Notes under the pieces: model-generated
Told to the model about the DNA's origin: nothing
Databases searched by the model: none
The model's input: the letters and a program-made list of their open reading frames with translations, nothing else
Source: an uncultured archaeon
GTDB taxonomy: Archaea > Asgardarchaeota > Thorarchaeia > Thorarchaeales > Thorarchaeaceae
Assembly: GCA_964648855.1 (NCBI GenBank)
Contig: CAZYLT010000005.1
Location: forward strand, 150,000-181,999
Length of the DNA: 32,000 nucleotides
Direction of reading: 5' to 3'
Made by a program: the position numbers and the translations under genes
Shown: one piece after another, positions 7,731-24,087 of the stretch
How positions within the stretch are numbered: position 1 is the stretch's first letter
How the letters are laid out: every line of letters begins with the position of its first letter

Positions 7731-7732
7731 AG

Positions 7733-8575: not shown

Positions 8576-8707
8576 GGTATACACATGGATGTTTTCCTCC
8601 TTTGAGAATATTTGTGTTGGGGGTATGATGATCGTAGTTCTCAATGGCATAATGGCGAAGCTTGGAATCCAAACAGCAAACAATCCAATTGCAGCTTAAA
8701 GGAAATG

Positions 8708-8740
8708 AAAAAGAAAGGATGGCCGGATATCCGGCCTTTT
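8708..8740 (-). terminator. Putative terminator downstream of hbd
   Basis: Perfect 16-bp palindrome GGCCGGATATCCGGCC (8721-8736) followed on the minus strand by a U-rich run (ccTTTcTTTTTc). Confidence 0.55.
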
Positions 8741-8745
8741 ACTAT

Positions 8746-9630
8746 CTAGAATGATATTGGTTCAGGTTTTTCCCCTGAGTAGTCATAGAAGCCCCTTCCT
8801 GCCTTCCTTCCTACCCAGCCCGCTCTTACCATCTTCCTCAGTAATGCCGGAGCTCGATACTTACTGTCCTTGAACTCCTCGACGAAGTAATCGGAGATGT
8901 ACAGCAAGGTGTCCAAGCCAACAAAATCTGCCAAGGTGAGTGGGCCCATGGGCCAATTCAAACCAAGTTTAATCGCTTTGTCCATGTCCTGCACTGACGC
9001 GACTCCTTCTTGAATGGCAAAAATAGCTTCATTGATTGCTGGCACTAGTAGTCGATTTACAGCAAATCCGGGTGCTTCATTCACTAAGACGGTCTCCTTG
9101 CCAAGCTTCTCTGAAACTTGTTGAATCACACCCACAGTCTCGTCATTGGTTGCTGCCCCTTTGATAATCTCTACTAAGTTCATCACTGGTACAGGATTAA
9201 AGAAGTGCATACCAACAAATTTCTCGGGTCTCTTAGTAACAGCTGCCATCTGTGTAATACTGATACTTGATGTGTTAGATGCCAGTATGGCATGATCTGG
9301 TGCCTTCTCATCAACTTCCTTCCATGTCTTGAGTTTCAAATCGACAATCTCTGGGACTGCTTCAATGACTAAATCGGCGTCCTTTACCGCATCTTCCAAA
9401 GACAGCGTACCTTCTATACGACCCACGGTGTCTTCTACTTCTTCTTCAGTAATCCTTCCCTTCTTCAAGCCTCGTTCAAGGTTCTTCCTTATCGTGTCCA
9501 AGGCCTTATCGATGAATTTCTGTTCAATGTCGCGCATCTTGACTTGATACCCTGCCTGAGCACAGACATGAGCGATACCGTTGCCCATCTGACCTGCGCC
9601 AAGGACTGCTATTATCTTAATCTCCATCAT
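8746..9630 (-). CDS. hbd: 3-hydroxyacyl-CoA (3-hydroxybutyryl-CoA) dehydrogenase
   Basis: GAGQMG Rossmann motif, 'IEAVPE', 'SNTSSISIT', catalytic 'GMHFFNPVPVMNLVE', 'PMGPLTLADFVGLD', 'GRKAGRGFYDY'. Confidence 0.95.
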   Translation of the reverse strand: MMEIKIIAVLGAGQMGNGIAHVCAQAGYQVKMRDIEQKFIDKALDTIRKNLERGLKKGRITEEEVEDTVGRIEGTLSLEDAVKDADLVIEAVPEIVDLKLKTWKEVDEKAPDHAILASNTSSISITQMAAVTKRPEKFVGMHFFNPVPVMNLVEIIKGAATNDETVGVIQQVSEKLGKETVLVNEAPGFAVNRLLVPAINEAIFAIQEGVASVQDMDKAIKLGLNWPMGPLTLADFVGLDTLLYISDYFVEEFKDSKYRAPALLRKMVRAGWVGRKAGRGFYDYSGEKPEPISF

Positions 9631-9730
9631 TCTCATCCTCACTTCCGTGTGTGTGAGTTACAATGAAAGCTGCAGAAGGGTATGTAATATGTTTGACGCA
9701 TTATACAATAGAAATACACCTCGCGGATTC

Positions 9731-9747
9731 AGTCACAATTTGTGACT
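9731..9747. promoter_or_regulatory. Palindromic candidate operator in the divergent hbd / small ORF-MFS intergenic region
   Basis: AGTCACAA-T-TTGTGACT, perfect 8-bp arms; TATA-like ATTATATA at ~9778. Confidence 0.45.
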
Positions 9748-9948
9748 ACATTCTGTGTCCTTCTTTTGTGGCTCTGCATTATATACCTCTGTGAGCAGGG
9801 CAATTTGTGAAACCGATGACGACGAATCAAACCCTATCAAGAATTTCCAAGAATGCGAAATCCTGCAAGATACCATCGACTCGCGCGCTTGCATTTGCAT
9901 GTTCCACAACAGTACGGTGATCTCTGTCATTTGGGAGGTGTAGAGCCA

Positions 9949-10152
9949 ATGCATTCAGTTAGTGCTCACAATACTGGTCACTTTGTCCCATTAATAGAAT
10001 ATGGACTGACCAATCAATATGAGATTGAGATGAATATTATGAATGCTGTTAAGCAGATAGTAAAGACAGATTCGCATGCTGCAATCACCTTAGCCGAGCT
10101 CCATCAGATTGTGGCTAATGCTTACCAATCAAAATGGAGACTTATGAAATGA
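9949..10152 (+). CDS. Small hypothetical protein (67 aa), translationally coupled to the MFS gene
   Basis: Strong RBS GGAGGTG at 9934-9940, 8 nt before ATG 9949; TGA stop overlaps the MFS ATG (ATGA 10149-10152); no recognisable domain. Confidence 0.6.
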   Translation: MHSVSAHNTGHFVPLIEYGLTNQYEIEMNIMNAVKQIVKTDSHAAITLAELHQIVANAYQSKWRLMK

Positions 10153-11591
10153 GTAGGATTGCCAGTTTTTTTGGCCTAGACAAGGCAAACCTTGACGTCA
10201 TGAGTCTAGCAAAGACATTGACAATGCTGCTCCCAACATTTGCAGCTATTAGTACGCTCTCTACAACCTTTCAGATGATTTTCATTGCTGAAGCACTGGG
10301 TGGTGGGGAGTATATTCAGGGACTAACTCTAGTTGGAATTCTTGTTGTCATACAGATGGTTGTTCAGACTGTATTAGATTATCCAACAGGTGCAATTGGT
10401 GATTGGATTGGACAAAGATATGTGATAGCTTCCTCACTATTATGCTTTGCAATATCCTATTATTTCATCTCTCTCGTGACTGCTTCAACATCCTTTTCCT
10501 TTCTCGTCCTCATCTATATCATGATAGGTTTCGGTACTTCCCAAGCTAGTGGAGCGTTCGACTCGTGGTTTGATAACAACTATCGAGTCGCAGTACCGGA
10601 GGACAGTGGGCGAAAGCAATACGGGGTGTTCATGGGAAAGGTGCAAATGATGTATCAATTGGTTGCCACGCTTGCTCTGATTCCTGGGAGTTTCGCGGCT
10701 ACAATATTCGGTAGGCCCTGGGTGTTTCAGATTCAAGCCGTATCATTTCTGATAATGGCAATAATCGTGTTGAGGTTACTCAAGGACCTACCCGGTGTGC
10801 ATCCAGAAGATAATTGTCAGGCTTCACTATCCGAATACAAAGATGTTCTCTCTTCAGGGGTTCGATTCCTCTTCAGTGATAATTACATAACACTGGTAAT
10901 CATCGGGGGGACTGTTCTTATGGCGGGAGGTATGGTTTGGAGTAACCTTATTCTATTCCCTATGTACTACAGCTACCTAAAAACAGATTTTGCAGTATCC
11001 AGCTTTCGGGCTCTTCTTTTCTTCATTGGAATTCTTACTGGTGAACGGGCAGCTGCATGGTCTAAGCGTTTTGAACCGAAAAATTGGATTCCCCGATTTG
11101 CGATTCTTCAGAGTCTGGGCTTCGTCTTTTACATGAGTTTTGCAATGATTACATTTTTCTTGCCACCCATAGACGGCAGCGAGATGCTAACATTACTGCT
11201 TCCTACAACCGATCTTGTTTTACTTCAAGTCCCAGTCGCATCTCTCATTCCCCTAGCGTTGATGGCCCTGACATTTAGTACGTGCGGTTTCTTCTCGGGT
11301 TTCTATTCCATCCTTCGACAAAGAGAATTGTTGGATGTGATTCCCAATAAGATACGCAATAGCTTGTACTCTCTGTTTCCTACAATCACAGTAATGATAG
11401 CTATTCCCCAGATTGCATTCTTTGGATGGTTAATTCCGGTCGGAGGGCTTCCGATTACCTTGGCGATTTCTGCATTCATATCTTTGATCGGAGTCATCAT
11501 GATAAGGAAAGGGCTAGACTATCCTAAGCCTGTTGCTGATATCCAAAAGGAAGGAGCGAAATCCGAATTAGAGGCAGTTCTGGAAGCTTGA
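10149..11591 (+). CDS. MFS transporter
   Basis: About 12 hydrophobic helices; MFS motif A variant 'DYPTGAIGDWIGQR'; 'SGAFDSWFDNNY'. Confidence 0.9.
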   Translation: MSRIASFFGLDKANLDVMSLAKTLTMLLPTFAAISTLSTTFQMIFIAEALGGGEYIQGLTLVGILVVIQMVVQTVLDYPTGAIGDWIGQRYVIASSLLCFAISYYFISLVTASTSFSFLVLIYIMIGFGTSQASGAFDSWFDNNYRVAVPEDSGRKQYGVFMGKVQMMYQLVATLALIPGSFAATIFGRPWVFQIQAVSFLIMAIIVLRLLKDLPGVHPEDNCQASLSEYKDVLSSGVRFLFSDNYITLVIIGGTVLMAGGMVWSNLILFPMYYSYLKTDFAVSSFRALLFFIGILTGERAAAWSKRFEPKNWIPRFAILQSLGFVFYMSFAMITFFLPPIDGSEMLTLLLPTTDLVLLQVPVASLIPLALMALTFSTCGFFSGFYSILRQRELLDVIPNKIRNSLYSLFPTITVMIAIPQIAFFGWLIPVGGLPITLAISAFISLIGVIMIRKGLDYPKPVADIQKEGAKSELEAVLEA

Positions 11592-11766
11592 AACTGCTTC
11601 TTGGAGCTGTCTATCTTTTCTTGTTTGCTATACGATTCTCAATCAATGATGAGTCTGCAGTACGCAAATTTATTACTACAAACTTCTCTGCATGCCATGT
11701 TGTGATATAATGGCACGTCGTCCTTCATTTCTGAATGTGAGATATTCTGGGACCGATTTGAACAAG

Positions 11767-12423
11767 ATGGACTATGAGAAACGTATCATGAAAGAGAAAG
11801 ATGTCGAGTTCGATGATGAAGATGGCTCAATCGAATTGACAGATGTACGTCTAGTCTGGATTAAGAAACCCTCACGATGGGGCGGCTTGAAAAAAGCTGG
11901 CGGAATTGCGGGAGCAATTGCAGGAGCTGTTGCAGCAGACGCAATAGGTAGTTCCATTGGAGGAGGTGCTGGGCGGGCAATCAGGCGGGCCGGTCGTGGA
12001 TTGGCATATGCATCAATTGGCGCTGCAATATCCTCTTGGAGTAGGGATTCCTACATAAACAAGGACAAGGATGGTAATACAGAAACTGTAGCACTTCCAA
12101 TTCTTGCAATTAGTCAGGCTGCACAGAGCGGGAACAAACTCGTCCTACAATTGAAATCTGGAGGCAACATGCAATTCCGCTTCAAGCAGAAGAAAGTAAT
12201 TCCTTCAGTGATTGCCAACATTACTTCTGCCATGGACGAAGGCAAATGTCCCTACTGTGGTGCGGGTACTAGCGGGGCAAACAAATGCTCGAACTGTGGG
12301 GCAGTACTAGCGGGTGGCGGAGAATCACCTTCATCAGGTGGCGATGGCAGATTTTGCACAAAGTGCGGACATCCTATAGAAGATGGTGATCGCTTCTGCG
12401 GAAAATGCGGAAATCCTGTATGA
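11767..12423 (+). CDS. PH/GRAM-like domain protein with Gly/Ala-rich insert and two C-terminal C4 zinc ribbons
   Basis: 'GSIELTDVRLVW' strand motif; glycine-zipper-like segment; CPYC..CSNC and CTKC..CGKC; ATG 11767 preferred to 11692. Confidence 0.75.
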   Translation: MDYEKRIMKEKDVEFDDEDGSIELTDVRLVWIKKPSRWGGLKKAGGIAGAIAGAVAADAIGSSIGGGAGRAIRRAGRGLAYASIGAAISSWSRDSYINKDKDGNTETVALPILAISQAAQSGNKLVLQLKSGGNMQFRFKQKKVIPSVIANITSAMDEGKCPYCGAGTSGANKCSNCGAVLAGGGESPSSGGDGRFCTKCGHPIEDGDRFCGKCGNPV

Positions 12424-12434
12424 TACCTGGATTG

Positions 12435-12464
12435 GGTTCTCTGGTTCACTGCTAACCAGAGACC
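12435..12464. terminator. Hairpin between convergent genes
   Basis: TCTCTGGTT (12438-12446) / AACCAGAGA (12454-12462): 9-bp stem, 7-nt loop. Confidence 0.5.
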
Positions 12465-12484
12465 TCCCGAATTTCTTGACTCAG

Positions 12485-13234
12485 CTACTTGAATAGGGTT
12501 TCATTAAGAGGACGATTTATGTTACTTGCAGTTTCATCTCCTTCATCAAATACAAAACCCTTGATGATTGCGACTGGAATTCCTTCTCCTGCCTGACCGG
12601 TTACAAGCTCAGCTGCTGCACCCAGCTCATCTACCTGACACACCGTTGAACTTTGGAGCACTCGATTATGGAGGTCCTTCTTTCCTCTGTTGTATTTGAA
12701 AGCACTAATCCCTGAACAGCCAATTGCAATGTTTGTTGCACCCAGTCTCCAAGGCCTTCCTTCTGTATCAGTTATGATTACTGCTATCCTTTTAGCTGAA
12801 AGATCCTGCAACCTTTCCCGAATTCTTGCAGCGCTTGCGTCACTATCAGAAGGTAAGAGAACATACGAGTCCGGTGGTGCGTTTGAATGGTCGACTCCGC
12901 TGAAATTGCATATCCTGCCCGACTTAGTGACGGTGATTAATGCTCTATCTATCCGGAGAACCTCAGTACTCTCCCGCAGAGCCAGAGCAACTTGATATGG
13001 ATCAAAGCCGTTCTTTTTAGCGATTCTTTTTGCTTCATTGGAGAGGGATATGTCATCTCTATGCACGATTCTTCCCTCAGCCTTTGATACTATGGTGTGA
13101 GCTATGACAACTATATCGGCATTGGAGAGTTTCAGTTTGTTCAACTGAATCGTCTGATAGATGATTTCTCCTAGGTCATCTCCCTCCTCAACTATGGGAA
13201 TCCCCTTGAGAGGCTCTACACTGACTGAGTTCAT
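12485..13234 (-). CDS. cofE: Coenzyme F420-0:L-glutamate ligase
   Basis: 'GIPIVEEGDDL', 'TIVSKAEGR', 'NFSGVD', 'ITDTEGRPWRLG', 'DELGAAAELVTGQAGEGIPVAIIKG'. Confidence 0.93.
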   Translation of the reverse strand: MNSVSVEPLKGIPIVEEGDDLGEIIYQTIQLNKLKLSNADIVVIAHTIVSKAEGRIVHRDDISLSNEAKRIAKKNGFDPYQVALALRESTEVLRIDRALITVTKSGRICNFSGVDHSNAPPDSYVLLPSDSDASAARIRERLQDLSAKRIAVIITDTEGRPWRLGATNIAIGCSGISAFKYNRGKKDLHNRVLQSSTVCQVDELGAAAELVTGQAGEGIPVAIIKGFVFDEGDETASNINRPLNETLFK

Positions 13235-13482
13235 AGTTCTAGTTATCCCACTTGGCCTTTTTAGAATGTGCTATCGGGTCATGGACGTGTTCATGGAGTT
13301 TATTATCTTTCAACCGCTACCCATCAACGTGAAACCGGCTAGCTACGGGAAAATATTATAGGATAGCAGAAAAACGACTAAAAGGCAGAGCGCCCTAATC
13401 TGCACATTCAGGGCAAATATTATCAATCCTCATAGTAGTGGGGCATTTAGCCGGGAATAGAGTGCAAAATGGAGTGACCTAA

Positions 13483-15438
13483 TTGAGTCCATCAACTAAT
13501 AAAACAACCAAAGCATCTTCGGGCGACATCAAACAAGGTACCATCGCCAAGTTCATGCGGAAAAGAACACAGCTAGTGGGCTTTGAAACGGGTCTTAACA
13601 AACACACTCAGTATACCATTGAGTTCCTCGATAATGCAATCGATGCCCTGGAGAGCTGGTGGTGGAGAATCAAACGAAAACCCAGGATTCCCGACCAACT
13701 GGATCCGGAGCTCGTTGAAGAAATAAAGGAAGAACTGGTGGGCAATGTTCCTGATACCATTAGCGAAAGCAAGGAGTTGGAGAAGAAGGTTCGTGCCGGG
13801 AAAGAGGTTGAAATCCCACCCCGGCAGGACGAATTACTGGATGACAAAGTCAAAGGGTTCAAGAAATTCATAAAACCGTTTAAGAAACTCATCCGAAAGC
13901 GAGAGCCATTAGTTGTAATGCAACTTAAGGAAGTTCAGATGCCAGACCTTGTCCCCATCGATGACGAAGATGGCTTCAAGGTGTACGAATTCACAGTCTT
14001 TGATTCTGGCATTGGGATGGTACCGTCTGACCTTGAGAAATTTGGAATTTACCTAGCGTCAAGTAAGTCTGAAAAACTAAGGCAAACAAGAGGCAGTCAA
14101 GGATTCGGAGCACCATCTGCGTTTAGCGATGCACAGAATACTACAGGCAAGCCAATATTTACCATAACAAAGCGATACACAGCAGACAAGGGCACAGCAG
14201 CTGATTTCTATACAACCACTGCCAATACGAAGGATTACGTGGCTGGGCCGAAACAAATGAAGCTGCCATTCAAGCAAGGCACCTATATCCGGTTACACTA
14301 TCTTAACATCCAGTATCGCCGTGGATACGCCGATATTTATGCTGAGATGGCATCTTTATTGAATGCACATGTCACCATTGTGTTCATAGACCCGTACGGT
14401 GAAGTTCATATTTATCCTCGCCGAGTGAAGCATTTTCCTGATGAACCCAAATACGCACAACCTCATCCTGCAAGCATAAGAATTGGCGAATTCCAAGACT
14501 TGCTGAGAGAAACTGATCAGACATATGTCAAAGGATTTCTAACGAAGGCATTTGTGCGACTTAGCAATAACAAAGCCGACTCAATCATAGATGCAACGAA
14601 TGAAGAGCTGAAGGCTCGCGAATTAAGAAAAATTGACCCTCGTACGAAAACTAAGAAACTGACCAAGGACCAAGTTGAGCTTCTTTACCGTGCTTTCTCT
14701 GCTGAAGACTACTACGCTCCTCCAACTGACACAGTTGTTCCTGTAGGAGAGGAGGTGTTCGAGCAAACCATACAAATGGCATATAATCCCGATTTTACCG
14801 CATCAGTTACTCGCAAGCCTACATCAGGTAAGGGCCTCTCATTCGCTGTCGAGGTATGCATTGCATATGGTGGCGAAATAAAACCGGCCACATCCGCACC
14901 TATGGTGCTCTGGCGATTCGTAAATCGAGTTCCAAAACTCCGCGATAATAGCGATTGTGCGACCTGGAAAGCAACGGCTATGGTCAACTGGAAGAATTAC
15001 AAGCTTGATACTTTTGACAACGGCATTCCAAAGGGACCTGTTATGGTCTTCATCCATGTCTGTGGAGCTTACGTACATGTGATGTTCAAAGGTCAGAGCA
15101 AACAAGCATTGGCTGAAGATGAAGTCCTTCTGAAGGAAATCAAACTTGCACTGGAAGAAGCAGGTCGGAAGTTCAGGAGATTCATAACAAAGAAAGAACG
15201 CGCAAGAAGAAAGGCGAAAAGGGCTGGGATATTAGCGATGTACGCAGACCAATTTGCAGAGAGCCTCACCACAATTGCTAACGGTGGCCTAGGCAAGAAG
15301 AAGTATGACGCTGAGCAAGTTGCAGGCAAAATTCGTGATGCTATAACAGGTTTCGAAACTGAAGACGACCAAAAAGAAACGGAAACTGATACCGAGGGCA
15401 GTGACCTCGTTGCTGATGTTCCGCTAGATGATGAATAG
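13483..15438 (+). CDS. top6B: DNA topoisomerase VI subunit B, with a large GHKL insertion
   Basis: GHKL N box 'EFLDNAIDA', G1 'DSGIG', G2 'QTRGSQGFG', 'GTYIRL'; H2TH region; transducer 'RFVNRVP', 'VNWKNY', switch Lys 'QSKQAL'; TTG start with GGAGTGA RBS at 13471. Confidence 0.93.
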   Translation: MSPSTNKTTKASSGDIKQGTIAKFMRKRTQLVGFETGLNKHTQYTIEFLDNAIDALESWWWRIKRKPRIPDQLDPELVEEIKEELVGNVPDTISESKELEKKVRAGKEVEIPPRQDELLDDKVKGFKKFIKPFKKLIRKREPLVVMQLKEVQMPDLVPIDDEDGFKVYEFTVFDSGIGMVPSDLEKFGIYLASSKSEKLRQTRGSQGFGAPSAFSDAQNTTGKPIFTITKRYTADKGTAADFYTTTANTKDYVAGPKQMKLPFKQGTYIRLHYLNIQYRRGYADIYAEMASLLNAHVTIVFIDPYGEVHIYPRRVKHFPDEPKYAQPHPASIRIGEFQDLLRETDQTYVKGFLTKAFVRLSNNKADSIIDATNEELKARELRKIDPRTKTKKLTKDQVELLYRAFSAEDYYAPPTDTVVPVGEEVFEQTIQMAYNPDFTASVTRKPTSGKGLSFAVEVCIAYGGEIKPATSAPMVLWRFVNRVPKLRDNSDCATWKATAMVNWKNYKLDTFDNGIPKGPVMVFIHVCGAYVHVMFKGQSKQALAEDEVLLKEIKLALEEAGRKFRRFITKKERARRKAKRAGILAMYADQFAESLTTIANGGLGKKKYDAEQVAGKIRDAITGFETEDDQKETETDTEGSDLVADVPLDDE

Positions 15439-15458
15439 ATACATGATGTCTTACGGAA

Positions 15459-17786
15459 GTGGAGATCTTGGCTAAGAAGAAGTCAACCAAGACAAAGAGT
15501 GTACAGACAACTCTGGGCGAGCATGAAGAGCCCGCGGAAGACAAGGACATCGAGAAGAAGAAAGATACTGGCAAAAAACCAACTCGGAGAAGGAAGAAGA
15601 TGGCCCCCAAGAAGAAATCAACTAAACAAAAAAAGAGCAAGAAGGCCAAAGATGCGGACCTATCACAACTTAAAGAGATACCTGGAGTGGGCCCCAAACT
15701 TGCGTTAAGATTAGCAGAATCAGGATATTCATCGATAGAGAAGCTCTCTAAGACTAAGCCTACAACCTTGGCGAATAAAGTTGAGGGCATGGGGAAAAAG
15801 GGGGCATCTGACATTGTAGACAATGCGAAAAGAATCTCTAGAAAAATGAACAAACCAAAAGACCTAGCTTTTCAAAACCTGCCTGGGGTTGGAGAAACGC
15901 TAGAGACCAGACTCTTTGTTGCTGGTTATGATTCAATAGAGAAAATCTCCAAAGCTTCTGCATCAGAATTAGCAAAAGATATCGAAGGGTTGGGAAAGAA
16001 GGGTGCCACAGATCTTTTGTCTGACGCGAACAAATTTGTTAAGCAGCAAAAAAAGAAGAAGAAGGAATTACCCAAAGACTTGAACTTACGGAAGCTTTCC
16101 GGAGTAGGCAAGAAACTTGAGAGACGGCTTTTCGATGCTGGATATGATACAATAGAGAAGATATCTAAAACGTCACCGTCGAAATTGAGCTCTGAAATAG
16201 AAGGTTTGGGACAGAAGGGAGCCAAGGATTTGGTTGCAGATGCAAAGAAGAAAGCAGCACCTAAACCTAGAAATGCCAAGAAACCTAAGAAGAAAGACAT
16301 TCCAAGCGTGAAACTTACTAGCATTCCTGGGATTGGCTCCAAAACAGCAGCCAACCTGAAAGATGCAGGCTATGATTCACTACAGAAAATTGCTGACTCA
16401 GACCCAAAAACTATGGCAAAAGAAGTTGATGGAGTCGGGAAGAAAGGCGCAGAGAAGCTAGTAAAAACTGTGGCAGATATTATTCCAGAACTTGAAACGA
16501 TAGCAGAACCTGTTACCACCGAAACTAAATCTTCAAGGCGTCGTAAGCCTGGACGCAGGGCATTGAAACGCTTCAAGGTTAAGAGAACAAAATCGGGTCT
16601 GCCCGTTCCCAAGAAGGTCAAAGAAGTAACCAAAGAAATGAGAGCTCACTGGGAAGAGATAGACAAACGGGAGGAGGAAGGAGAACTTGTTGACGAAGAC
16701 CTGCCGGATACAATGGAAGTAGTTGCGCTAACGGGCGATGAAACTAAGGATGAATTGGCTAAAGTTGCAATCGAAGTTCTTAATGAAGCTCTGACTACAG
16801 GAAGGCCAGCATTTGAAATCCCGAGCAGATCAAGTGACAATATAGTCTGGGACGAATTCAGAGACCTGCTACTATTGGGTACGAAGACCATCTCTAGACC
16901 ATATCATTCTCTTGGTTCGGTTGTCGATGCAACCAGAACCGCAAGGTTGATGGAAATTATCTACCGTCTTCTTGATGAAAATCTGCACGCAACAAAGCGA
17001 GAAGTATTCTATAGCGATGTGAATTTGTTTAGAGACCAACGATATAGCGACAAACTCATTGAAGATGTAGCCTCCATGCTTCATACAACCCGTGATAGCG
17101 TCCATGTAGTTGCATCTGCGAGAGGGTCTGCATTGGGCCGCGTTACTATACGCGACGGAGGCGACTTGATAGACCTCACAAAGATGGGGACCGGTGGATG
17201 GTCAATAACCCCATTCCTGGATCAGGTTGAAATCGTCGAGAGCGATGCTGAATTCATCATTGTGTCGGAAAAGGATGCTGCAGTGATGCGACTAGCAGAG
17301 GCAAAATACTGGAACCGACAACCATGTATCGTCATAACTGGAAAGGGCTCTGGTGATATCGCAACTCGCGCATTCCTCAAGATGCTTGTAAGAGAACTTG
17401 AGATTCCTGCATTTGCCCTTATGGACTCGGACCCTTATGGCCACTACATTTACTCTGTTTTCTTAAGAGGATCAAAGCGTCTAAGCTATGAGTCGCCATT
17501 CATTGCTACTCCAGAGCTGAAGCTACTTGGTGTATTGAGTAGAGATCTCGACCGTTTTGATATTCCGAAGAGTGTCCGAATCCCCATGGAAGATTCGGAT
17601 ATCAAGAGAGTCAAGGAAATGCTAAAGGAGCCATTCGTTCAGAAGAACAAAGAGTGGGTCAAAGATTTGGAGCTCATGTTGAGAATCAGAGAAAAAGCAG
17701 AGATCCAAGCATTTGCAAGTCACTCTTTCAAGTATCTTACAGATGAGTATCTGCCCACAAAATTGGAAACTGGTGATTGGATCTAG
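15459..17786 (+). CDS. top6A: DNA topoisomerase VI subunit A (Spo11 family) with N-terminal 4x (HhH)2 repeat extension
   Basis: C-terminal ~350 aa: winged helix 'TKREVFY' (catalytic Tyr ~Y518, nt 17010), TOPRIM 'VSEKDA', 'ITGKG', 'MDSDPYG', 'KAEIQA', 'YLPTKL'; one uninterrupted 775-aa ORF (start may be TTG 15468). Confidence 0.93.
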   Translation: MEILAKKKSTKTKSVQTTLGEHEEPAEDKDIEKKKDTGKKPTRRRKKMAPKKKSTKQKKSKKAKDADLSQLKEIPGVGPKLALRLAESGYSSIEKLSKTKPTTLANKVEGMGKKGASDIVDNAKRISRKMNKPKDLAFQNLPGVGETLETRLFVAGYDSIEKISKASASELAKDIEGLGKKGATDLLSDANKFVKQQKKKKKELPKDLNLRKLSGVGKKLERRLFDAGYDTIEKISKTSPSKLSSEIEGLGQKGAKDLVADAKKKAAPKPRNAKKPKKKDIPSVKLTSIPGIGSKTAANLKDAGYDSLQKIADSDPKTMAKEVDGVGKKGAEKLVKTVADIIPELETIAEPVTTETKSSRRRKPGRRALKRFKVKRTKSGLPVPKKVKEVTKEMRAHWEEIDKREEEGELVDEDLPDTMEVVALTGDETKDELAKVAIEVLNEALTTGRPAFEIPSRSSDNIVWDEFRDLLLLGTKTISRPYHSLGSVVDATRTARLMEIIYRLLDENLHATKREVFYSDVNLFRDQRYSDKLIEDVASMLHTTRDSVHVVASARGSALGRVTIRDGGDLIDLTKMGTGGWSITPFLDQVEIVESDAEFIIVSEKDAAVMRLAEAKYWNRQPCIVITGKGSGDIATRAFLKMLVRELEIPAFALMDSDPYGHYIYSVFLRGSKRLSYESPFIATPELKLLGVLSRDLDRFDIPKSVRIPMEDSDIKRVKEMLKEPFVQKNKEWVKDLELMLRIREKAEIQAFASHSFKYLTDEYLPTKLETGDWI
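15657..16484 (+). repeat. Four tandem ~60-aa (HhH)2 repeats within top6A
   Basis: Units L..(I/L)(P/S)G(V/I)G.....L...GY.(S/T)(I/L)(E/Q)K(I/L)........(L/M)...(V/I)(E/D)G.G.KGA..(I/L), with the PG.G motif at 15681, 15882, 16098 and 16326. Confidence 0.92.
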
Positions 17787-17803
17787 CTGCTGAACTCTGA
17801 ATT

Positions 17804-17851
17804 AGAATACGACTCGCATATGAATATAATATGTCGAACTTGGCGTATTCT
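17804..17851 (+). terminator. Possible stem-loop downstream of top6A
   Basis: AGAATACG / CGTATTCT outer 8-bp stem enclosing CATAT/ATATG, followed by TTATT. Confidence 0.3.
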
Positions 17852-17952
17852 TTATTACCATACTACAACATCCTTAAGAAGTCTGAATCATCTACACTAT
17901 AGTGAATTTCCAATGAGTGTAGGGTTTAATGCCTGCACAACTGGTGAGAAAA

Positions 17953-18882
17953 ATGATTGAGTCCACTGTTGGTATCCCGGTTATTGATGCACATGCGCAC
18001 TTTATGACAAGAAGCACTGTTGAATCTATAATTAACGATTCGCAGTCAATTAGCAAAATACGTGAGAGAGTGTCATCTCATACAGATATGAAGGAATTTC
18101 AAATACCTGATGTGGACTGGGATATCGGCGAAGCGTGGATTGAAGAGCTCAATAAATATGGAGTAATTGCAATCGGGATGATGGTTGGGGAGGAGTCATG
18201 GGATGAATTCAATCAAGTGCGTGAACGATATCCAGGTAGGTTTATGGGAAATGCAAATATCAACCCTGCCAATGAAAACGCCATTGATCTTGTGAAACGG
18301 GCTGGAAGAGACAACTTTCAAGCAATCAAGCTCTATCCTACCTCATGGGACTTTCATTCATATGACGAAATTGTGTATCCTATTTACGAAGAAGCTCTAA
18401 AGCAAGGCCTCTTGGTAATGCTACATTTTGGAATAACAATTGGCTCCACAGCGAATCTTAGATATGGTAATCCGCTTGATATACAGAAACCCGCTCATGA
18501 CTTTCCGGATTTGAATTTCATGATCGCGCACTTTGGGGCAGGTTTCTTCCGGGAAGTTCTCATGCTAATGTATCAAACAGAAAACGTCTATATGGACACT
18601 AGTGGCAGCAATTCTTGGATGAAGTATCTTCCATATGACCTCTCGCTAACGAAAATATTTGAGAAGGCCTTGAGAGCTGGAGGTCCTGACCGTATTGTCT
18701 TTGGAACCGACTCCTCGTTCTTTCCCAGAGGTTTTAGGGCAAGTATTCTCGAAGATCAATATGCTGCTGTTAGTTCTATCTGTCCTCAATTTTGCTATTC
18801 AGAGGATGATGTTGATAAAATCTTCAGGAGCAATATATTGAAACTCAACAAATTTGAACCAGCATCTGAGATATCGAACTAG
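17953..18882 (+). CDS. Amidohydrolase family protein (Amidohydro_2 TIM barrel)
   Basis: 'IDAHAH', 'IKLYP', 'MLHFG', 'IAHFGAG', 'NVYMDTS', 'VFGTDS'; ATG 17953 after GGTGA. Confidence 0.9.
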   Translation: MIESTVGIPVIDAHAHFMTRSTVESIINDSQSISKIRERVSSHTDMKEFQIPDVDWDIGEAWIEELNKYGVIAIGMMVGEESWDEFNQVRERYPGRFMGNANINPANENAIDLVKRAGRDNFQAIKLYPTSWDFHSYDEIVYPIYEEALKQGLLVMLHFGITIGSTANLRYGNPLDIQKPAHDFPDLNFMIAHFGAGFFREVLMLMYQTENVYMDTSGSNSWMKYLPYDLSLTKIFEKALRAGGPDRIVFGTDSSFFPRGFRASILEDQYAAVSSICPQFCYSEDDVDKIFRSNILKLNKFEPASEISN

Positions 18883-18901
18883 AAGCAATAAGTCTCCGAA
18901 A

Positions 18902-20104
18902 TCAAGCCTTCCTGATTTTCTTGTCAAGACCCCTGAGCTTCTTGTTATTGCCCCCTTCCTTGTATTTCTCAGCTGCCTCTTGATATGTCGCTAAAGCCTC
19001 GCGAGTTCTGCCATGCTTTGCCAACTCATCTGCCTTATCCTCCAAATACTCGCCCCAATCAACATAACAATCGCGAGCTTTCTCAGCAGCTTTAGCCCGC
19101 ATCTTCTTATCTGTGGTCAACATGTATATTTCTCTAGCTTTCTTGTATTGTACAATTGCCCATTCGTACTGTCCTGCTTTCTTGTGACTCTCTGCTTGGT
19201 CAAAATGGAACTCAGCCATCTTCTCATATGCCTCATCGATTTTCTTAATGGACTCCTTGACCATCTTTTCATTTGATGCGCGTTCGGCGAGTTTCTTCGA
19301 TTTTTCGAATTGTTCGATTGCGAACTCGTGTTCATTCTCGTCGACTTTCTGTTCACCAAACTCCATTCGTGCCTGAGCCATAGCCTCATAGACATAGGAT
19401 GGATAATCAAAATCATCATCGGATAAGGCGACACCACAGTTTGGGCATGATGGTGTATCAAGCTCCTGCATTTTATCGGGTGCCTTAATTTCTGTTGGTT
19501 TTCCCACTACTCTCTCAACAAAATCTTCGCTTGTTTCGTATTTACCTTCGGGAAAGAGGTGTTGTACTGCTTGCTCTCTTTCTGTAGACCTAATCGGCTT
19601 GGTAGACTTAACTTCGGGAGGTTTTATCTCTTTGAATGGCATTCCCTCTTTGACGTCATCTGCCTCCATCTCTGGAATTTCCCAAGACATATCTGATTCA
19701 ATCTTGGTTTTGCTGTCTGACAGTGTACCGAAATCTTGATCTTTCTCCAATGGAATTTTGACATCATCTTCCTCGATAGGCATGCCATCTTTGGGCTCTG
19801 CCTTGTCTGAGTCCCACAATAAGTCATCAGGAGGTAGTTCTTCCTCATGTTCTGGTAGTGGTTCAAGTGCCGATTCCTCAAGAGTGGATGTGCCCACATC
19901 ATTTGCCTTTTCTTCAGAGGCAATATCAATCCGCGTAAATCCCTTTTCCCGTGCTTCTTGTTTTGCCTCAGCAAGCTCCCTTTTCATGATATCCTCAGGA
20001 GTTTGATCATTAGGTGCAGCAAGTCTAGCTCCACAATTCATGCAAAATGTAGATGCCTTTCCAACTTTCTTTCCGCACTCGGGGCACTCTATCGTTTTGT
20101 CCAT
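18902..20104 (-). CDS. Zinc-ribbon, acidic linker and TPR/SNAP-like helical repeat protein
   Basis: N-terminal CPEC..CMNC; ~180-aa D/E/P-rich region; lone CPNC; three helical repeats ('AIEQFEKS', 'AIVQYKKAREIY', 'ALATYQEAAEKY'). Confidence 0.75.
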   Translation of the reverse strand: MDKTIECPECGKKVGKASTFCMNCGARLAAPNDQTPEDIMKRELAEAKQEAREKGFTRIDIASEEKANDVGTSTLEESALEPLPEHEEELPPDDLLWDSDKAEPKDGMPIEEDDVKIPLEKDQDFGTLSDSKTKIESDMSWEIPEMEADDVKEGMPFKEIKPPEVKSTKPIRSTEREQAVQHLFPEGKYETSEDFVERVVGKPTEIKAPDKMQELDTPSCPNCGVALSDDDFDYPSYVYEAMAQARMEFGEQKVDENEHEFAIEQFEKSKKLAERASNEKMVKESIKKIDEAYEKMAEFHFDQAESHKKAGQYEWAIVQYKKAREIYMLTTDKKMRAKAAEKARDCYVDWGEYLEDKADELAKHGRTREALATYQEAAEKYKEGGNNKKLRGLDKKIRKA

Positions 20105-20234
20105 GGTTAAGAACAACTCTTTCAGTTGAATGGCACGAATTGTTGCCGACTTGCCTTGCCACAGTGTTGATTGTTGAACTTCACTATATGAACAAAGCTC
20201 GTATCATCTGTTTCTGTGGAGATTGTGCTTCTCA

Positions 20235-20861
20235 TTACATCAACATTGGAAGAATGTAATAGGTAAGAATCGTGATTGCTGCAGCAAGAATGACTCCACT
20301 GAGAGACTGTATTAGAGTGTGCTGTTTCAGCGCGGTCCTTGACCAGACAACCAGAATCCAGATTATTATAATAGGTGCAGCGAGTAGACCATATTCGATA
20401 ATAAGCGCAGTTCCGGGTCCCCCGACACCTGCTCCGTGAACCGAGACTTTAGAAATCTTATTGACAAGCATCACTCCTGTTGTTACTGTAATATATGCTC
20501 CAGATAAATAGAGCATAACTTCAGCGTTCACAACATAGTAGATTGAGAATGCAATCATATAGAAGAATATTGCATACGCGAAAAATCTGGTTCTGACTTC
20601 CTGTTTGGAAACATCTAGGTCTACATTTCCTCTATATGCCTCGATTATGATCGGCATCACAGGAAGGACTACCATGAATATCATGCAAATTAGTATTGAT
20701 GTGGCAGGGATTAGTATTGGCCCCAGTCTGTTGGAAGAAGCAATTGACATGATTGCGCCAGCTACCAGATTGATAATTGGGGCGGGAGTAACTCTTGAAA
20801 TGGCACGTGCCAAAGTCACATTTCTTCCTGACAAATCAAGCGATTCATCACCATATTTCAC
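20235..20861 (-). CDS. Membrane protein, divergent PAP2 (phosphoesterase)-like family
   Basis: About 6 TM helices; 'KVSVHGAG' and 'WSRTALKQHTLIQ' resemble PAP2 motifs 2 and 3; motif 1 not seen. Confidence 0.7.
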   Translation of the reverse strand: MKYGDESLDLSGRNVTLARAISRVTPAPIINLVAGAIMSIASSNRLGPILIPATSILICMIFMVVLPVMPIIIEAYRGNVDLDVSKQEVRTRFFAYAIFFYMIAFSIYYVVNAEVMLYLSGAYITVTTGVMLVNKISKVSVHGAGVGGPGTALIIEYGLLAAPIIIIWILVVWSRTALKQHTLIQSLSGVILAAAITILTYYILPMLM

Positions 20862-21034
20862 CTTAGTTCAACTTCCTTTTGGTTGTAAGTATGGGTTTGA
20901 GGCTTCAATCTACCATTTTTGAGCATATCTAGGCGGCGGGTAATCATCGCCAAAAGGCTTTTGTTGAGTCCAAGCTTTTCATAATAATACGGAGCTCAGA
21001 GAAACTCCTATGGATGTGCTACCACATGCCTGCA

Positions 21035-21334
21035 ATGCCCAAACGTGAAGTCTTTGAACGAATTATTCAGAATATAACGAACAAATTTCCAGATATCTAT
21101 GCAGCACTATTCATCAGCCCTGAGGGATTTCCCATAAACACATGGGGAGTGAGTCTGGAACGCGCAGAGGAGATATCTGCGCTGTTAAGCTCCTTGATTG
21201 GAAAAACAAAGGAGATTATCCGTCAGGTGAAAGAGGGTGGCGAGCTTCAGTTTATTCAGATACAAACCAATGTTGGGGGAATTAGAATTGCTCCTCAAGA
21301 GGAGTTTATTCTCGTCACACTAACTAAGTCTTAG
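21035..21334 (+). CDS. Roadblock/LC7 domain protein
   Basis: 'PDIYAALFISPEGFPI...EEISALLSSLIGKTKEIIRQVKEGGELQFIQIQT..G.I.IAP' roadblock alpha-beta pattern; ~100 aa; start uncertain (21014/21026/21035). Confidence 0.88.
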   Translation: MPKREVFERIIQNITNKFPDIYAALFISPEGFPINTWGVSLERAEEISALLSSLIGKTKEIIRQVKEGGELQFIQIQTNVGGIRIAPQEEFILVTLTKS

Positions 21335-21440
21335 TATCAGATTCGATTCATATCAATAGACATTGAAGGCAGAGCATGCATCTAATGAGTCAAGTGGATG
21401 TTGCATATCAAGTTCTAACTCGGAGTGCCCGTTAGTGCCA

Positions 21441-21480
21441 TTTTTATACCTAGTATCCCGACTACAGTAAGACGGGATGC
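21441..21480 (+). promoter_or_regulatory. Putative radA TATA box and downstream stem-loop
   Basis: TTTTTATA at 21441-21448; GTATCCCG...CGGGATGC inverted repeat at 21453-21480; GGAGGT RBS at ~21518. Confidence 0.4.
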
Positions 21481-21530
21481 TTGAGAATATAGTGCAAAAA
21501 ATCTTCGAGCATTCGAGGGAGGTCAATTAG

Positions 21531-22556
21531 ATGTCACCAAAAAATGATGAGAACGACGAGGAAGATGTCGATTACGAGGAATTTGAGGAAGAAGATGAGG
21601 AATTCGATGATGAATTGCCTGATTATGAGCTCACAGACCTTCCTGGTGTTGGTCCTGCAATAGGCAAACGATTAGTAGAAGCTGGATTCAAGAGTGTGGA
21701 GGCTATTGCAGCTGCTTCATCGAGTGAATTGGCAGCTGCCGGCTCAATAGGTGAAACTACTGCAAACAAGATTATCAAGGCAGCCCGTGAGATGCTCGAT
21801 ATCGGGTTTGAAACCGCAGACTTGTTGCTCGAGCGCAGACGAGTTGCAGGAAAAATCACAACTGGCTGCAAAGCTCTGGATGAACTTTTCGGCGGCGGTA
21901 TCGAAACACAAGCAATTACTGAAATGTATGGTTCATTCAGGTCTGGAAAGACACAAATGGCTCATCAATTAGCAGTAAATATTCAATTGTCCCCAGATGA
22001 AGGTGGTCTCTCAGCCACTGCAATCTACGTAGATACAGAGGGAACTTTCCGTCCTGAAAGGCTTGTTGACATGGCCGAGCATCTAGGGCTTGATACCGAG
22101 GAGGTTCTGAAGAATGTGGTTTGGGCGCGAGCCTATAACTCTGACCATCAAATTCTCTTGTGCGATCAAGCAATGGAGATGGCTCCTGAGAAAAATGCAA
22201 AACTCTTAATTGTAGACTCTGTGACCAGTCATTTCCGTGCAGAATATACGGGACGGGGTACATTGGCGGCTAGGCAACAGAAGCTTAACAAACATCTTCA
22301 CCACCTCCAGCGCGGTGCAGAGGTAAATAATATGGCGGTCTATATTACCAATCAAGTCATGGCCAGACCAGATGCATTTTTTGGCGATCCAACGACTCCT
22401 GTTGGGGGCCACGTTCTAGCTCATGTTCCCCAAACTAGATGCTACCTTCGCAAGTCAAAGGGCGAACGAAGAATATGTCGTCTCGTGGATTCTCCACACC
22501 TACCAGAGGGTGAAGCAGTATTCACGATTACTAAGGAAGGAATCCAGGACGTATAG
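21531..22556 (+). CDS. radA: DNA repair and recombination protein RadA
   Basis: N-terminal HhH domain, FETA polymerisation motif, Walker A GSFRSGKT, '[13 protein letters not shown]', Walker B LLIVDS, 'GGHVLAH', '[12 protein letters not shown]'. Confidence 0.98.
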
Positions 22557-22562
22557 ACAGCG

Positions 22563-22583
22563 ATGCCCCTGTTAGAGGGGCAT
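22563..22583. terminator. Hairpin between convergent radA and GGR genes
   Basis: ATGCCCCT-gttag-AGGGGCAT: 8-bp stem in a 33-nt gap. Confidence 0.55.
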
Positions 22584-22589
22584 TCCAAC

Positions 22590-23942
22590 TCATTTGAATA
22601 CAGCCTGATTGATAATGGAGATTACAGATTCATTCCACTCTTCTAGTTGTGTTGGCGAATTAGGATATTGTGAATAGGTCGAATCCATTTTCTTCATTAG
22701 ACTTGCAGCTCGTTGGAGCTTCCTCAAAAGGGTGATGTTACCAATTCCTCGCTTTACTCGTTTCAGCTTGTCGAAAATCCCGAACGAGAACCCTTCCCCT
22801 CGATTCGCGGCCATCAGGTCCTCAGCTTCTAGAAGACGCTTTTCAAACCCATAATTTATCTCTTCATCGGTTACATCAGCAAGCAGCCGCTTGAAAATTT
22901 CTAAAGATGCGAGTCTTCTTCCAAAATTGGACAGAAATCTTGAGTTGAAATGCCACAAACCGTCGGCTGTCAGATTTCTTCTGACAATTGCTTCTTTTGC
23001 AACTTCTCCTAGAATCATCCCTGCTCTCATTCCTGCACCAATGCCTCCACCATGAATTGGATTGACCATCAATGCTGCATCCCCAAGAAAGGCTATGCCA
23101 TCTGAAACCAAGCTCTTCAATGGCCTGCGGACGGGTACCGCTCCTCCTCCTCGATCAATGATTTCACTGCCTTGAAACAAGTCATACTCATCTTTGAATG
23201 AAAGAAATAGGTTCTTGGGAGACCCTTGTCCTTCGCCGCCCGTTACACCAACTCCTGCATTAACACTCTTGTTTCCTTTTGGAAAAATCCAGGAATATCC
23301 ATTTGGTGAATAAGAACCACCAAGAAAGACTCGTGCTACCTCTGATTCCTGCAGAGGCTTCTCGAGCTTCAATATTTCTCTATAGCATAACGCAATATCC
23401 CGTTTGTCGATATTCTGTTCTACGAGTGGGTTATCGATTTTTTTCCGAACCACCGCAGAGAATCCACTGGCATCAATGACGAGTTTGGAGTAGAAATTGA
23501 CCTCTTCACCTGAGGGTCCATCTTTGCTGTAGACTCCCACTACCCGGTCTCCATCCATTATAGGCCCGCCCACATGTGATTGTGGTCGAAAAACAACTCC
23601 TGCATTTTTTGCCTCCTGAAGAAGGCGCTGTCCGAAGAAGTGACGACTCACGGTCCATCCATCAAAATCAGACCAGCCTCGGACATTCAGTATATTTTCC
23701 ATATTCGGAGGGTAAACATCCGCACCGGAGATTACACTTGATATCTCATTTCCATGTGGGTATTCAATTCCAGTTGCATCAAAATGAGATCTACTTATTT
23801 CATCCCCGCAGACCTTTCTCCCAACATCTGCTTCTTGTTTTCTATCCAGCAATAATGTTCGTAGTCCCATCTCGGCACACCTCCGTGCGGCAACGCACCC
23901 AGCGGAACCTGCTCCAACTACGACAATATCAGGACGTATCAA
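22590..23942 (-). CDS. Geranylgeranyl reductase family flavoprotein (digeranylgeranylglycerophospholipid reductase-like)
   Basis: 'DIVVVGAGSAG', 'KVCGD', 'IDASG', 'GYSWIFPK', 'GDAALMVNPIHGGGI'; start uncertain (TTG 23942 or 23984). Confidence 0.9.
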   Translation of the reverse strand: MIRPDIVVVGAGSAGCVAARRCAEMGLRTLLLDRKQEADVGRKVCGDEISRSHFDATGIEYPHGNEISSVISGADVYPPNMENILNVRGWSDFDGWTVSRHFFGQRLLQEAKNAGVVFRPQSHVGGPIMDGDRVVGVYSKDGPSGEEVNFYSKLVIDASGFSAVVRKKIDNPLVEQNIDKRDIALCYREILKLEKPLQESEVARVFLGGSYSPNGYSWIFPKGNKSVNAGVGVTGGEGQGSPKNLFLSFKDEYDLFQGSEIIDRGGGAVPVRRPLKSLVSDGIAFLGDAALMVNPIHGGGIGAGMRAGMILGEVAKEAIVRRNLTADGLWHFNSRFLSNFGRRLASLEIFKRLLADVTDEEINYGFEKRLLEAEDLMAANRGEGFSFGIFDKLKRVKRGIGNITLLRKLQRAASLMKKMDSTYSQYPNSPTQLEEWNESVISIINQAVFK

Positions 23943-24087
23943 TGTGGTTCGAATCTGAAAGATTTTGCACTCATATAAATCCAAGCCTAATGTGTCTCTT
24001 AACTTGGTTGCTCAGAACTCCAACTCGCGGAGTAGGTAGCTTTTCATAAGAATTATCAGTGTCGTATAAGAAGCGGGCGAGAAGACT

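Follow-up and report, generated by a model that had tools for sequence, protein, structure and literature searches.

We have studied the gene for the A subunit of DNA topoisomerase VI (topo VI) in 32,000 nucleotides of DNA from an uncultured thorarchaeon (contig CAZYLT010000005.1, positions 150,000 to 181,999). This stretch, which we call the window, closes contig C5 and makes up its final 32 kb; the genome measures 3.1 Mb and is 94.6% complete. The encoded Top6A carries four tandem helix-hairpin-helix domains, each an (HhH)2 unit, on an N-terminal arm that precedes the catalytic core. Our reading, to which we give a probability of about 0.65, is that the arm is a sequence-independent DNA tether that holds topo VI on its substrate. 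Topo VI, from which the meiotic Spo11 machinery descends, is the main type II topoisomerase of archaea. The topo VI enzymes studied so far are slow, distributive sensors of DNA crossings that draw all their accessory DNA contacts from Top6B; the M. mazei enzyme is slow and highly distributive (PMC8837201), and senses crossings (PMC8837201, PMC5922973). Here the cleavage subunit has gained an arm of its own. The gene and the parts of its product are as follows.

15459..17786, + strand: top6A with N-terminal HhH arm, 775 amino acids (open reading frame list, Pfam, NCBIfam; alternative start TTG at 15468 possible)
15459..15662, + strand: disordered lysine-rich leader, residues 1-68, net charge +14 (predicted local distance difference test score, pLDDT, about 30; charge count)
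15501..15530, + strand: N-terminal short linear motif, V15-E24 (VQTTLGEHEE), whose family consensus resembles the PCNA-interacting peptide (PIP) box
15663..15845, + strand: (HhH)2 unit 1, residues 69-129 (Pfam, hairpins, hidden Markov model (HMM), structural model)
15861..16046, + strand: (HhH)2 unit 2, residues 135-196 (same four lines of evidence)
16077..16259, + strand: (HhH)2 unit 3, residues 207-267 (same)
16305..16490, + strand: (HhH)2 unit 4, residues 283-344 (same)
16491..16676, + strand: basic linker (SRRRKPGRR..KVKRTK), SGLPVP motif and helix of residues 385-406 (orthologue conservation; structural model)
16737..17783, + strand: Top6A catalytic core, residues 427-775 (Pfam, NCBIfam, 74-sequence alignment, match to S. 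shibatae 2zbk_A)
17010-17012, + strand: catalytic Tyr518 of the winged-helix/5Y-CAP domain, within the core
17268-17270, + strand: TOPRIM Glu604, within the core
17424-17432, + strand: TOPRIM Asp656 and Asp658, within the core

Pfam assigns four stretches of the protein to HHH_5 (E 2.8e-44), residues 492-550 to TP6A_N and residues 599-769 to the Top6A/Spo11 TOPRIM domain PF21180 (E 1.3e-54). The NCBIfam topo VI-A models cover residues 426-775, and the N-terminal part of the NCBIfam RadA models matches the protein four times. The true start may be the TTG at 15468 rather than the GTG at 15459, because close orthologues open with MARKK or LARKK.

An earlier note on this DNA, made from the sequence, had described a 775-residue frame with an intact Top6A, preceded by four repeats spaced 67, 72 and 76 residues apart, in a probable Asgard archaeon. 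The Pfam and NCBIfam matches and the invariant catalytic residues described below bear out the frame, the positions of the hairpins give exactly those spacings, and the homologues are labelled Thorarchaeota. The note had also suggested that the integrity of the frame be checked. Positions 15300-17900 are spanned with zero differences by Logan contigs of three runs that belong to a single microbial-mat study and may represent the source sample of the window. A further run of this study (2021) yields contigs of a strain variant, which differ across that interval by substitutions alone and have no indels. In a protein search the same set of domains was met in more than 250 proteins of 600-950 residues; nearly all are labelled Thorarchaeota or Promethearchaeota, and the frame thus recurs in independent assemblies. 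The fused frame is not a misassembly; both the independent contigs and the recurrence speak to this, and the recurrence is the stronger evidence.

The arm comprises about 430 residues and has a net charge of +40, compared with -8 for the core. Its eight GhG hairpins lie at residues 74, 108, 141, 175, 213, 247, 289 and 323. They form pairs, the two hairpins of a pair lying about 34 residues apart within a five-helix bundle, as is found in (HhH)2 domains of the HHH_5 family (the RadA-N and NusA-AR type). The units share 32-60% identity with one another, units 2 and 3 being 60% identical, and no repeat was found at the DNA level between 15400 and 16800 using Tandem Repeats Finder. These identities, together with the lack of a DNA-level repeat, indicate that the expansions of the units are old.

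The structure of the protein was modeled with AlphaFold2 from a 74-sequence alignment, giving a mean pLDDT of 71 for the full-length protein. A separate model of the arm alone had a pLDDT of 80. Each unit is predicted to adopt the five-helix (HhH)2 fold with a pLDDT of about 90, and residues 1-66 and the linkers have values below 50-70. A fold search of the PDB with the arm model gave low global TM-scores, as the units are flexibly linked; the informative results are the superpositions of single units and the alignments that extend over several. Single units superpose on RadA N-domains and a NusA AR domain within 1.1-1.3 Å (1t4g, 1pzn and 1wcn). The N-terminal (HhH)2 domain of RadA and Rad51 and the AR1 and AR2 domains of NusA belong to the same HHH_5 family and share its fold, with about 29-33% identity to the units. 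Alignments over several units were found among the top hits with the tandem HhH region of NusA and with DNA-bound topoisomerase V (topo V; 8df7_A). At the level of sequence the units match topo V and P. furiosus Rad51 in the PDB, with E about 1e-5 to 1e-6. In the full-length model the conserved SGLPVP motif is succeeded by the helix at residues 385-406, which continues into the core. Asgard and eukaryotic Top6A proteins have an extra N-terminal helix (Brinkmeier et al. 2022, PMC9665070), to which the modeled helix corresponds in position.

The core matches S. shibatae Top6A (2zbk_A) over residues 441-775 with E 6.2e-58. R514, E515 and Y518 of the REVFY motif, E604, and D656 and D658 of the DSDPYG motif are invariant in the 74-sequence alignment. 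The fold and catalytic chemistry are those of canonical archaeal topo VI (S. shibatae 2ZBK, M. mazei 2Q2E and M. jannaschii 1D3Y), and an A2B2 enzyme is to be expected here. Unlike the protein in the window, the canonical A subunit has 301-389 residues and no accessory DNA-binding domain, the auxiliary DNA contacts being supplied by Top6B through its H2TH domain, stalk and Ig-like C-terminal domain.

The partner is encoded immediately upstream, with 20 nucleotides between the end of top6B and the start of top6A, and the two genes are predicted to be co-transcribed.

13483..15438, + strand: top6B, ATPase subunit, 651 amino acids (Pfam transducer domain, E 3.3e-43; NCBIfam Top6B, E 1.7e-103)
13654-13941, + strand: charged insert of about 96 residues in Top6B, residues 58-153, directly after the N box (alignment with M. 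mazei)
about 15355-15435, + strand: acidic C-terminal tail of Top6B, net charge -11 over the last 40 residues (comparison of tails)

This Top6B has an intact Bergerat fold with the N box, G1 (DSGIG) and G2, along with WKNY (the WKxY motif) and the switch lysine. A partner with a GHKL ATPase and a transducer separates topo VI from Spo11-type break makers, and the window's Top6B is such a partner. With the ATPase and catalytic motifs both intact, the protein is best read as the A subunit of a functional type IIB enzyme.

How might the arm act? From the N terminus it is made up of the short linear motif, lysine-rich tracts predicted to be disordered, four independently folded (HhH)2 domains, the basic linker and, before the core, the predicted helix that by its position is of Asgard and eukaryotic type. 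An A2B2 enzyme would bear two such arms, with eight (HhH)2 domains in total in addition to the lysine-rich tracts. Domains of this class contact the DNA backbone without sequence preference (PMC9489208), and those of the arm would, as members of the family, be expected to engage the phosphate backbone of duplex DNA in the same manner. By retaining on the DNA an enzyme that is otherwise slow and distributive, the arms would confer higher processivity and tolerance of salt, and they may also help to bend the gate segment or to capture the second duplex at a crossing. The N-terminal region of Top6A contacts the stalk of Top6B (PMC13040014), and the arms would emerge beside it. The wrapping of DNA and the altered supercoil handling proposed in the earlier note are conjectures. 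The tip of the arm may additionally dock PCNA in most orthologues, by a motif that is degenerate in the genus of the window.

A functional precedent for an HhH array as an element of processivity is provided by topo V of Methanopyrus kandleri, a type IC enzyme in which a topoisomerase is likewise joined to tandem (HhH)2 domains, 12 in number. The topo V array wraps DNA, serves as a processivity factor, and confers processivity on other enzymes (PMC9489208). Topo V differs from the protein in the window in that its catalytic domain is unrelated, and its array is C-terminal and compact, where here four N-terminal units are carried on flexible linkers. We considered whether the protein might itself be a member of the topo V group, and rejected this, as there is no topo V catalytic domain and the matches are confined to single HhH units.

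The comparison with topo V also raises the idea that the arm is an add-on for repair, some of its lysine-rich (HhH)2 units having apurinic/apyrimidinic (AP) or deoxyribose phosphate (dRP) lyase activity. The topo V array is reported to include three AP-lyase sites (PMC4838376), and topo V is the best structural match over several units that comes from a topoisomerase. The sequence similarity to the units of topo V is marginal, however (E about 4e-6, for one unit), no lyase motif was identified in the units, and AP-lyase activity is not indicated for this Top6A. We consider a role in repair extremely improbable.

Basic appendages on the cleavage subunit are familiar from type IIA enzymes. The C-terminal domains of GyrA and ParC and of eukaryotic Topo II are partly basic DNA-binding appendages that tune the choice of substrate and the tethering of the enzyme to chromatin. 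The likeness to the arm is one of analogy only; those domains have unrelated folds and lie at the other terminus, and chiral wrapping is unsupported here.

The distribution of the arm was examined in the GTDB order of the window, with the Top6A core alone as the query against its 87 species genomes. Each of the 79 genomes of the window's family contains exactly one high-scoring orthologue, with a frame of 617-954 residues in 66 of them. Shorter frames were found in the other 13, of which at least 10 begin at a contig edge or are broken by a gap of N; one of the shorter frames (505 residues) is interrupted by a run of N. The HhH arm is evidently the standard form in the whole family, rather than a rarity. 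The sister family, represented by one genome of the same order, has an orthologue of 420 residues that is 77% identical and lacks HhH domains. This places the origin of the arm at the base of the window's family. When 1.84 billion proteins were searched, HhH domains were present in just the two Thorarchaeota clusters among the 150 best cluster representatives. The other long relatives among these 150 were scanned and none has an HhH domain; the longest contain inteins, and the remainder unannotated extensions. Frames of 1449-1454 residues in two genomes proved to be Top6B and Top6A sharing a reading frame, and not a giant fusion.

We counted the units with an HMM built from the four in the window, applied to the 120 best long homologues. 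Two units were found in 108 of these, three in 2, four in 6, five in 1 and seven in 3, within N-terminal regions of 360-605 residues. In most of fifteen N-terminal regions examined lysine and arginine together make up about 25%, with tracts of the AKKP type.

This composition invites another explanation, that the arm is an anchor to chromatin or the nucleoid. On that view tracts rich in lysine, alanine and proline, like those of histone H1, would combine with the HhH domains to localize the enzyme, possibly with multivalent condensation, and leave the catalytic cycle unchanged. The low-complexity AKKP-type tracts occur in all the orthologues examined, disorder is predicted outside the units, and the number of units is variable, all of which would suit an anchor. 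Yet the glycines of the HhH hairpins are strictly conserved, which points to specific contacts with the backbone rather than to charge alone, and the proposal overlaps heavily with that of a DNA tether. We regard an anchoring function as rather unlikely.

Several observations weigh against the arm as a DNA tether. The binding of DNA by its units is a prediction from the HHH_5 family. The arm is evolving much faster than the core, with 82% as against 98% identity within the genus. The number of units varies from 2 to 7, so that their exact geometry cannot matter much, and the orthologue of the sister family works without an arm. Finally, there are two other topo VI operons in the genome, and any of the three may supply the housekeeping enzyme.

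In its core the window's Top6A shares 60-69% identity with the single-copy proteins of archaea labelled Baldr-, Odin-, Hel-, Hod-, Hermod-, Loki- and Jord-, 44% with a Top6A protein of the diatom Thalassiosira, and only 27% and 25% with copies 2 and 3, those of the other two operons of its own genome. A maximum-likelihood tree of 86 rows was calculated with a short search and with support from the Shimodaira-Hasegawa-like approximate likelihood ratio test (SH-aLRT). In this tree all the HhH-bearing proteins group together as one clade with a support of 100, within the conserved Asgard clade, itself supported at 99. An arm-less protein of 423 residues is sister to them (support 100), and the two lie amid the Baldr, Odin/Jord and Loki/Hel/Hod groups; the neighboring clade comprises Heimdall-like long forms and the eukaryote representative. 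Copies 2 and 3 lie outside the conserved Asgard clade, copy 2 with unnamed representatives and copy 3 on a very long branch. Multiple Top6A/B pairs had already been reported in Asgard archaea in 2025, the conserved copy being the closest to eukaryotes; a second copy occurs in various Asgard clades and a third in Thorarchaeia, and these extra copies are related to those of other archaea (PMC12680538). The same paper describes a signature motif insertion that the conserved copy has in common with eukaryotic proteins. Judged by the tree and the identities, the HhH-bearing protein is the conserved, vertically inherited Asgard copy.

With the conserved Asgard-type Top6A (PMC12680538, PMC9665070) the protein in the window shares the invariant catalytic residues, the operon partner, an insert in the GHKL domain of that Top6B, and, in the model, a helix at the position of the extra N-terminal one. 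It differs in having about 385 additional residues at the N terminus, which contain the four (HhH)2 units and the lysine-rich tracts. In other Asgard classes Top6A has 394-425 residues, or 470-506 residues with a different, unannotated N-domain. The forms of 470-506 residues were seen in several other Asgard families (loci L004-L008, for example L005:175-1593, minus strand). Their N-domain of about 90 residues gave no match in Pfam; by eye it resembles a beta-grasp or ubiquitin-like fold, and these forms adjoin the eukaryote representative in the tree. The N-terminal query also matched frames of 559 residues in another Asgard family, at loci other than that of its Top6A.

A full-text literature search found no paper describing an HhH-armed Top6A, the co-occurrences of HhH and Top6A being incidental as judged by title or abstract. 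The arm is absent from the main texts of the most relevant papers on the evolution of topo VI and on the Asgard replisome. The main text of PMC12680538 gives the extra topo VI copies with no mention of HhH, and its supplements could still mention the arm. The earlier note had called the architecture unknown to it, and this agrees with the search, but the proteins are public under generic names, 'helix-hairpin-helix domain-containing protein' at NCBI and 'SPO11' at JGI. What is new is a type IIB topoisomerase that probably has a modular tether to DNA built into it; the Asgard Top6A core and the multiple copies were known already.

The extreme N terminus of the arm carries a sequence of the form K-rich-x-VQ[AST]TLG[DE][LV][VI]E in 105 of 121 orthologues. 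This calls to mind the PIP box, Q-x-x-[LIM]-x-x-[FYW]-[FYW], by which the arm could dock PCNA and bring decatenation or removal of supercoils to the replication fork. Such a replisome tether would be compatible with the tethering of DNA by the units. The motif also resembles PIP boxes at the C termini of proteins of the same genome (QTLLEEFF, QSSLTEFF and QSGLENFL). However, positions 7 and 8 are aliphatic in the family consensus (L/V-V/I). In the window, where the motif reads Q16-T-T-L19-G-E-H-E, these positions are His-Glu, with no hydrophobic pair, and the same is true across the genus.

The complex of the N-terminal 60 residues of a family orthologue with its own PCNA, from a genome that is 98% complete, was predicted; this orthologue has the consensus-like motif and not the version in the window. 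The prediction scored 0.63 (runs of 0.61, 0.63 and 0.64), where the best of three controls scored 0.03, and passed a mark attained by 58 of 80 solved complexes and by 2 of 110 mismatched pairs. The runs share at least 60% of their contacts, with a partner pLDDT of at least 46. Peptide residues 10-22 are placed in contact with PCNA at the canonical PIP site, namely residues 38-47, residues 121-128 of the interdomain loop and residues 242-249 of the C-terminal tail. The pass may nevertheless reflect mere likeness, because PIP-PCNA complexes are abundant among solved structures; what the prediction shows is a likeness to the PIP box and not binding. No paper on an interaction between topo VI and PCNA was found in the literature. 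We put docking to PCNA forward as somewhat improbable for the family, and as more so for this genus.

In its fullest form the proposal would make this a topo VI tethered both to the clamp, by the N-terminal motif, and to the duplex, by the (HhH)2 domains. It would act as a processive decatenase and relaxase coupled to the replisome in a lineage that lacks gyrase, with the two acquired operons taking other roles. We offer this double tether as a possibility, and a somewhat doubtful one. Thorarchaeota are without gyrase (PMC9348778). The arm, perhaps with a tip that docks the clamp, thus sits on the Asgard copy reported to be closest to eukaryotes, in a gyrase-less lineage with three topo VI operons. 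As a natural experiment the protein would bear on the addition of processivity and substrate capture to a type IIB enzyme, on the division of work among paralogous topo VI enzymes, and on how far Asgard replication-associated proteins had gained tethers of eukaryotic style.

The recombinase gene radA lies 3.7 kb downstream of top6A. The earlier note had remarked on this proximity, and had proposed that break formation might be coupled to recombination. The genes concerned are as follows.

21531..22556, + strand: radA, 3.7 kb downstream of top6A; a conserved neighbor in the order, outside the topo VI operon
about 7700-24000: syntenic block shared with distant members of the family; alpha/beta hydrolase, 3-hydroxyacyl-CoA dehydrogenase, major facilitator superfamily (MFS) protein, zinc-ribbon protein, cofE, top6B and top6A, continuing after top6A with an amidohydrolase, a zinc-ribbon/TPR protein, a 208-residue protein (function not assigned), a Roadblock/LC7 protein, radA and geranylgeranyl reductase

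The proximity is genuine, and it is conserved in the family. Both genes are on one contig in 54 family genomes, and in 49 of these radA follows top6A on the same strand at a distance of 2.5-10 kb; the spacing of 3.7 kb in the window is therefore not due to chance. We have to consider that the arm couples Spo11-like breaks to recombination by RadA, whether through HhH units descended from, or imitating, the N-domain of RadA, with which they share the HHH_5 fold, or through co-regulation. Yet in the sister-family genome, where Top6A has no arm, radA is 2.0 kb downstream. In four other Asgard families the linkage is missing, top6A and radA being at least 49 kb apart and bona fide copies of radA at least 130 kb away. 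Moreover radA is just one member of a block of unrelated genes. The genes between top6A and radA vary by lineage and some are on the opposite strand, and in one lineage there is an insertion of an ABC transporter before radA (7.5 kb downstream in one such genome). The linkage is inherited synteny older than the arm, which neither explains the arm nor shows a coupling of breaks to repair.

Nor is the N-domain of RadA the nearest relative of the units. In a scan of the genome with the HMM of the units, it was the lowest-scoring real match, at 35.6 bits. Above it were proteins that we named by eye as L32e-like (with four units), two HEAT-repeat proteins, S25e-like, RpoK-like and a membrane protein. 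The units are 27-37% identical to the RadA N-domain and 23-46% identical to the HhH2 units on these other proteins. The earlier description of the repeats as RadA/Rad51-NTD-like thus holds at the level of the HHH_5 family, but identity to the RadA N-domain is below or equal to that with the other HhH2 proteins, and there is no specific kinship. Furthermore, Top6B has the full ATPase found in strand-passage enzymes. With the linkage present in the arm-less sister, radA not co-transcribed with top6A, and the block made up of unrelated genes, the coupling of breaks to recombination suggested in the earlier note is not supported. We find it very improbable, and see in the HhH-armed Top6A no evidence for an archaeal forerunner of the coupling of Spo11 to Rad51.

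The other (HhH)2-bearing proteins of the genome are encoded at the following places.

G000:C6:18303-19646, + strand
C5:40931-41800
C3:21289-21963
C7:105009-106391
C1:32648-33307
C18:21347-22960

Three of the four units of the L32e-like protein are nearly identical, and the membrane protein is multi-pass.

Returning to the partner subunit, residues 18-57 of Top6B align with residues 15-54 of M. mazei Top6B, and residues 154-587 with residues 60-482, the charged insert falling between the two. A GHKL insert is present in all eight Asgard Top6B proteins examined and is larger in the Thorarchaeota partners. The distance from the N box to G1 is 127 residues in every Thorarchaeota partner that was compared; it is 120 for the sister family and 100 for two further Asgard genomes. 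A link between the acidic tail of Top6B and the arm was considered and is weak, since the arm-less sister family has a related tail rich in serine and glutamate. The tail motif TGFET..ETETD..DLV.DVPL is common to most family members examined.

A search for a second top6A, as the earlier note had suggested, revealed two further top6B-top6A operons in the genome, making three in all.

G000:C2, L002:856-2004: Top6A of the operon on contig C2, canonical, 350 amino acids
G000:C9, L003:1423-2571, minus strand: Top6A of the operon on contig C9, highly divergent, 382 amino acids

In the Top6A of contig C9 the sequence DMSPWS occupies the position of the TOPRIM DxD motif, and one metal-binding aspartate has been lost. 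Two Top6A genes, with frames of 473 and 389 residues, lie about 11 kb apart on a single contig in an Asgard genome that does not belong to the window's family (G308:C6:515382-527305). One genome of the window's family has two tandem PCNA paralogues of 251 and 257 residues (L028, G363:C6:121406-124708).

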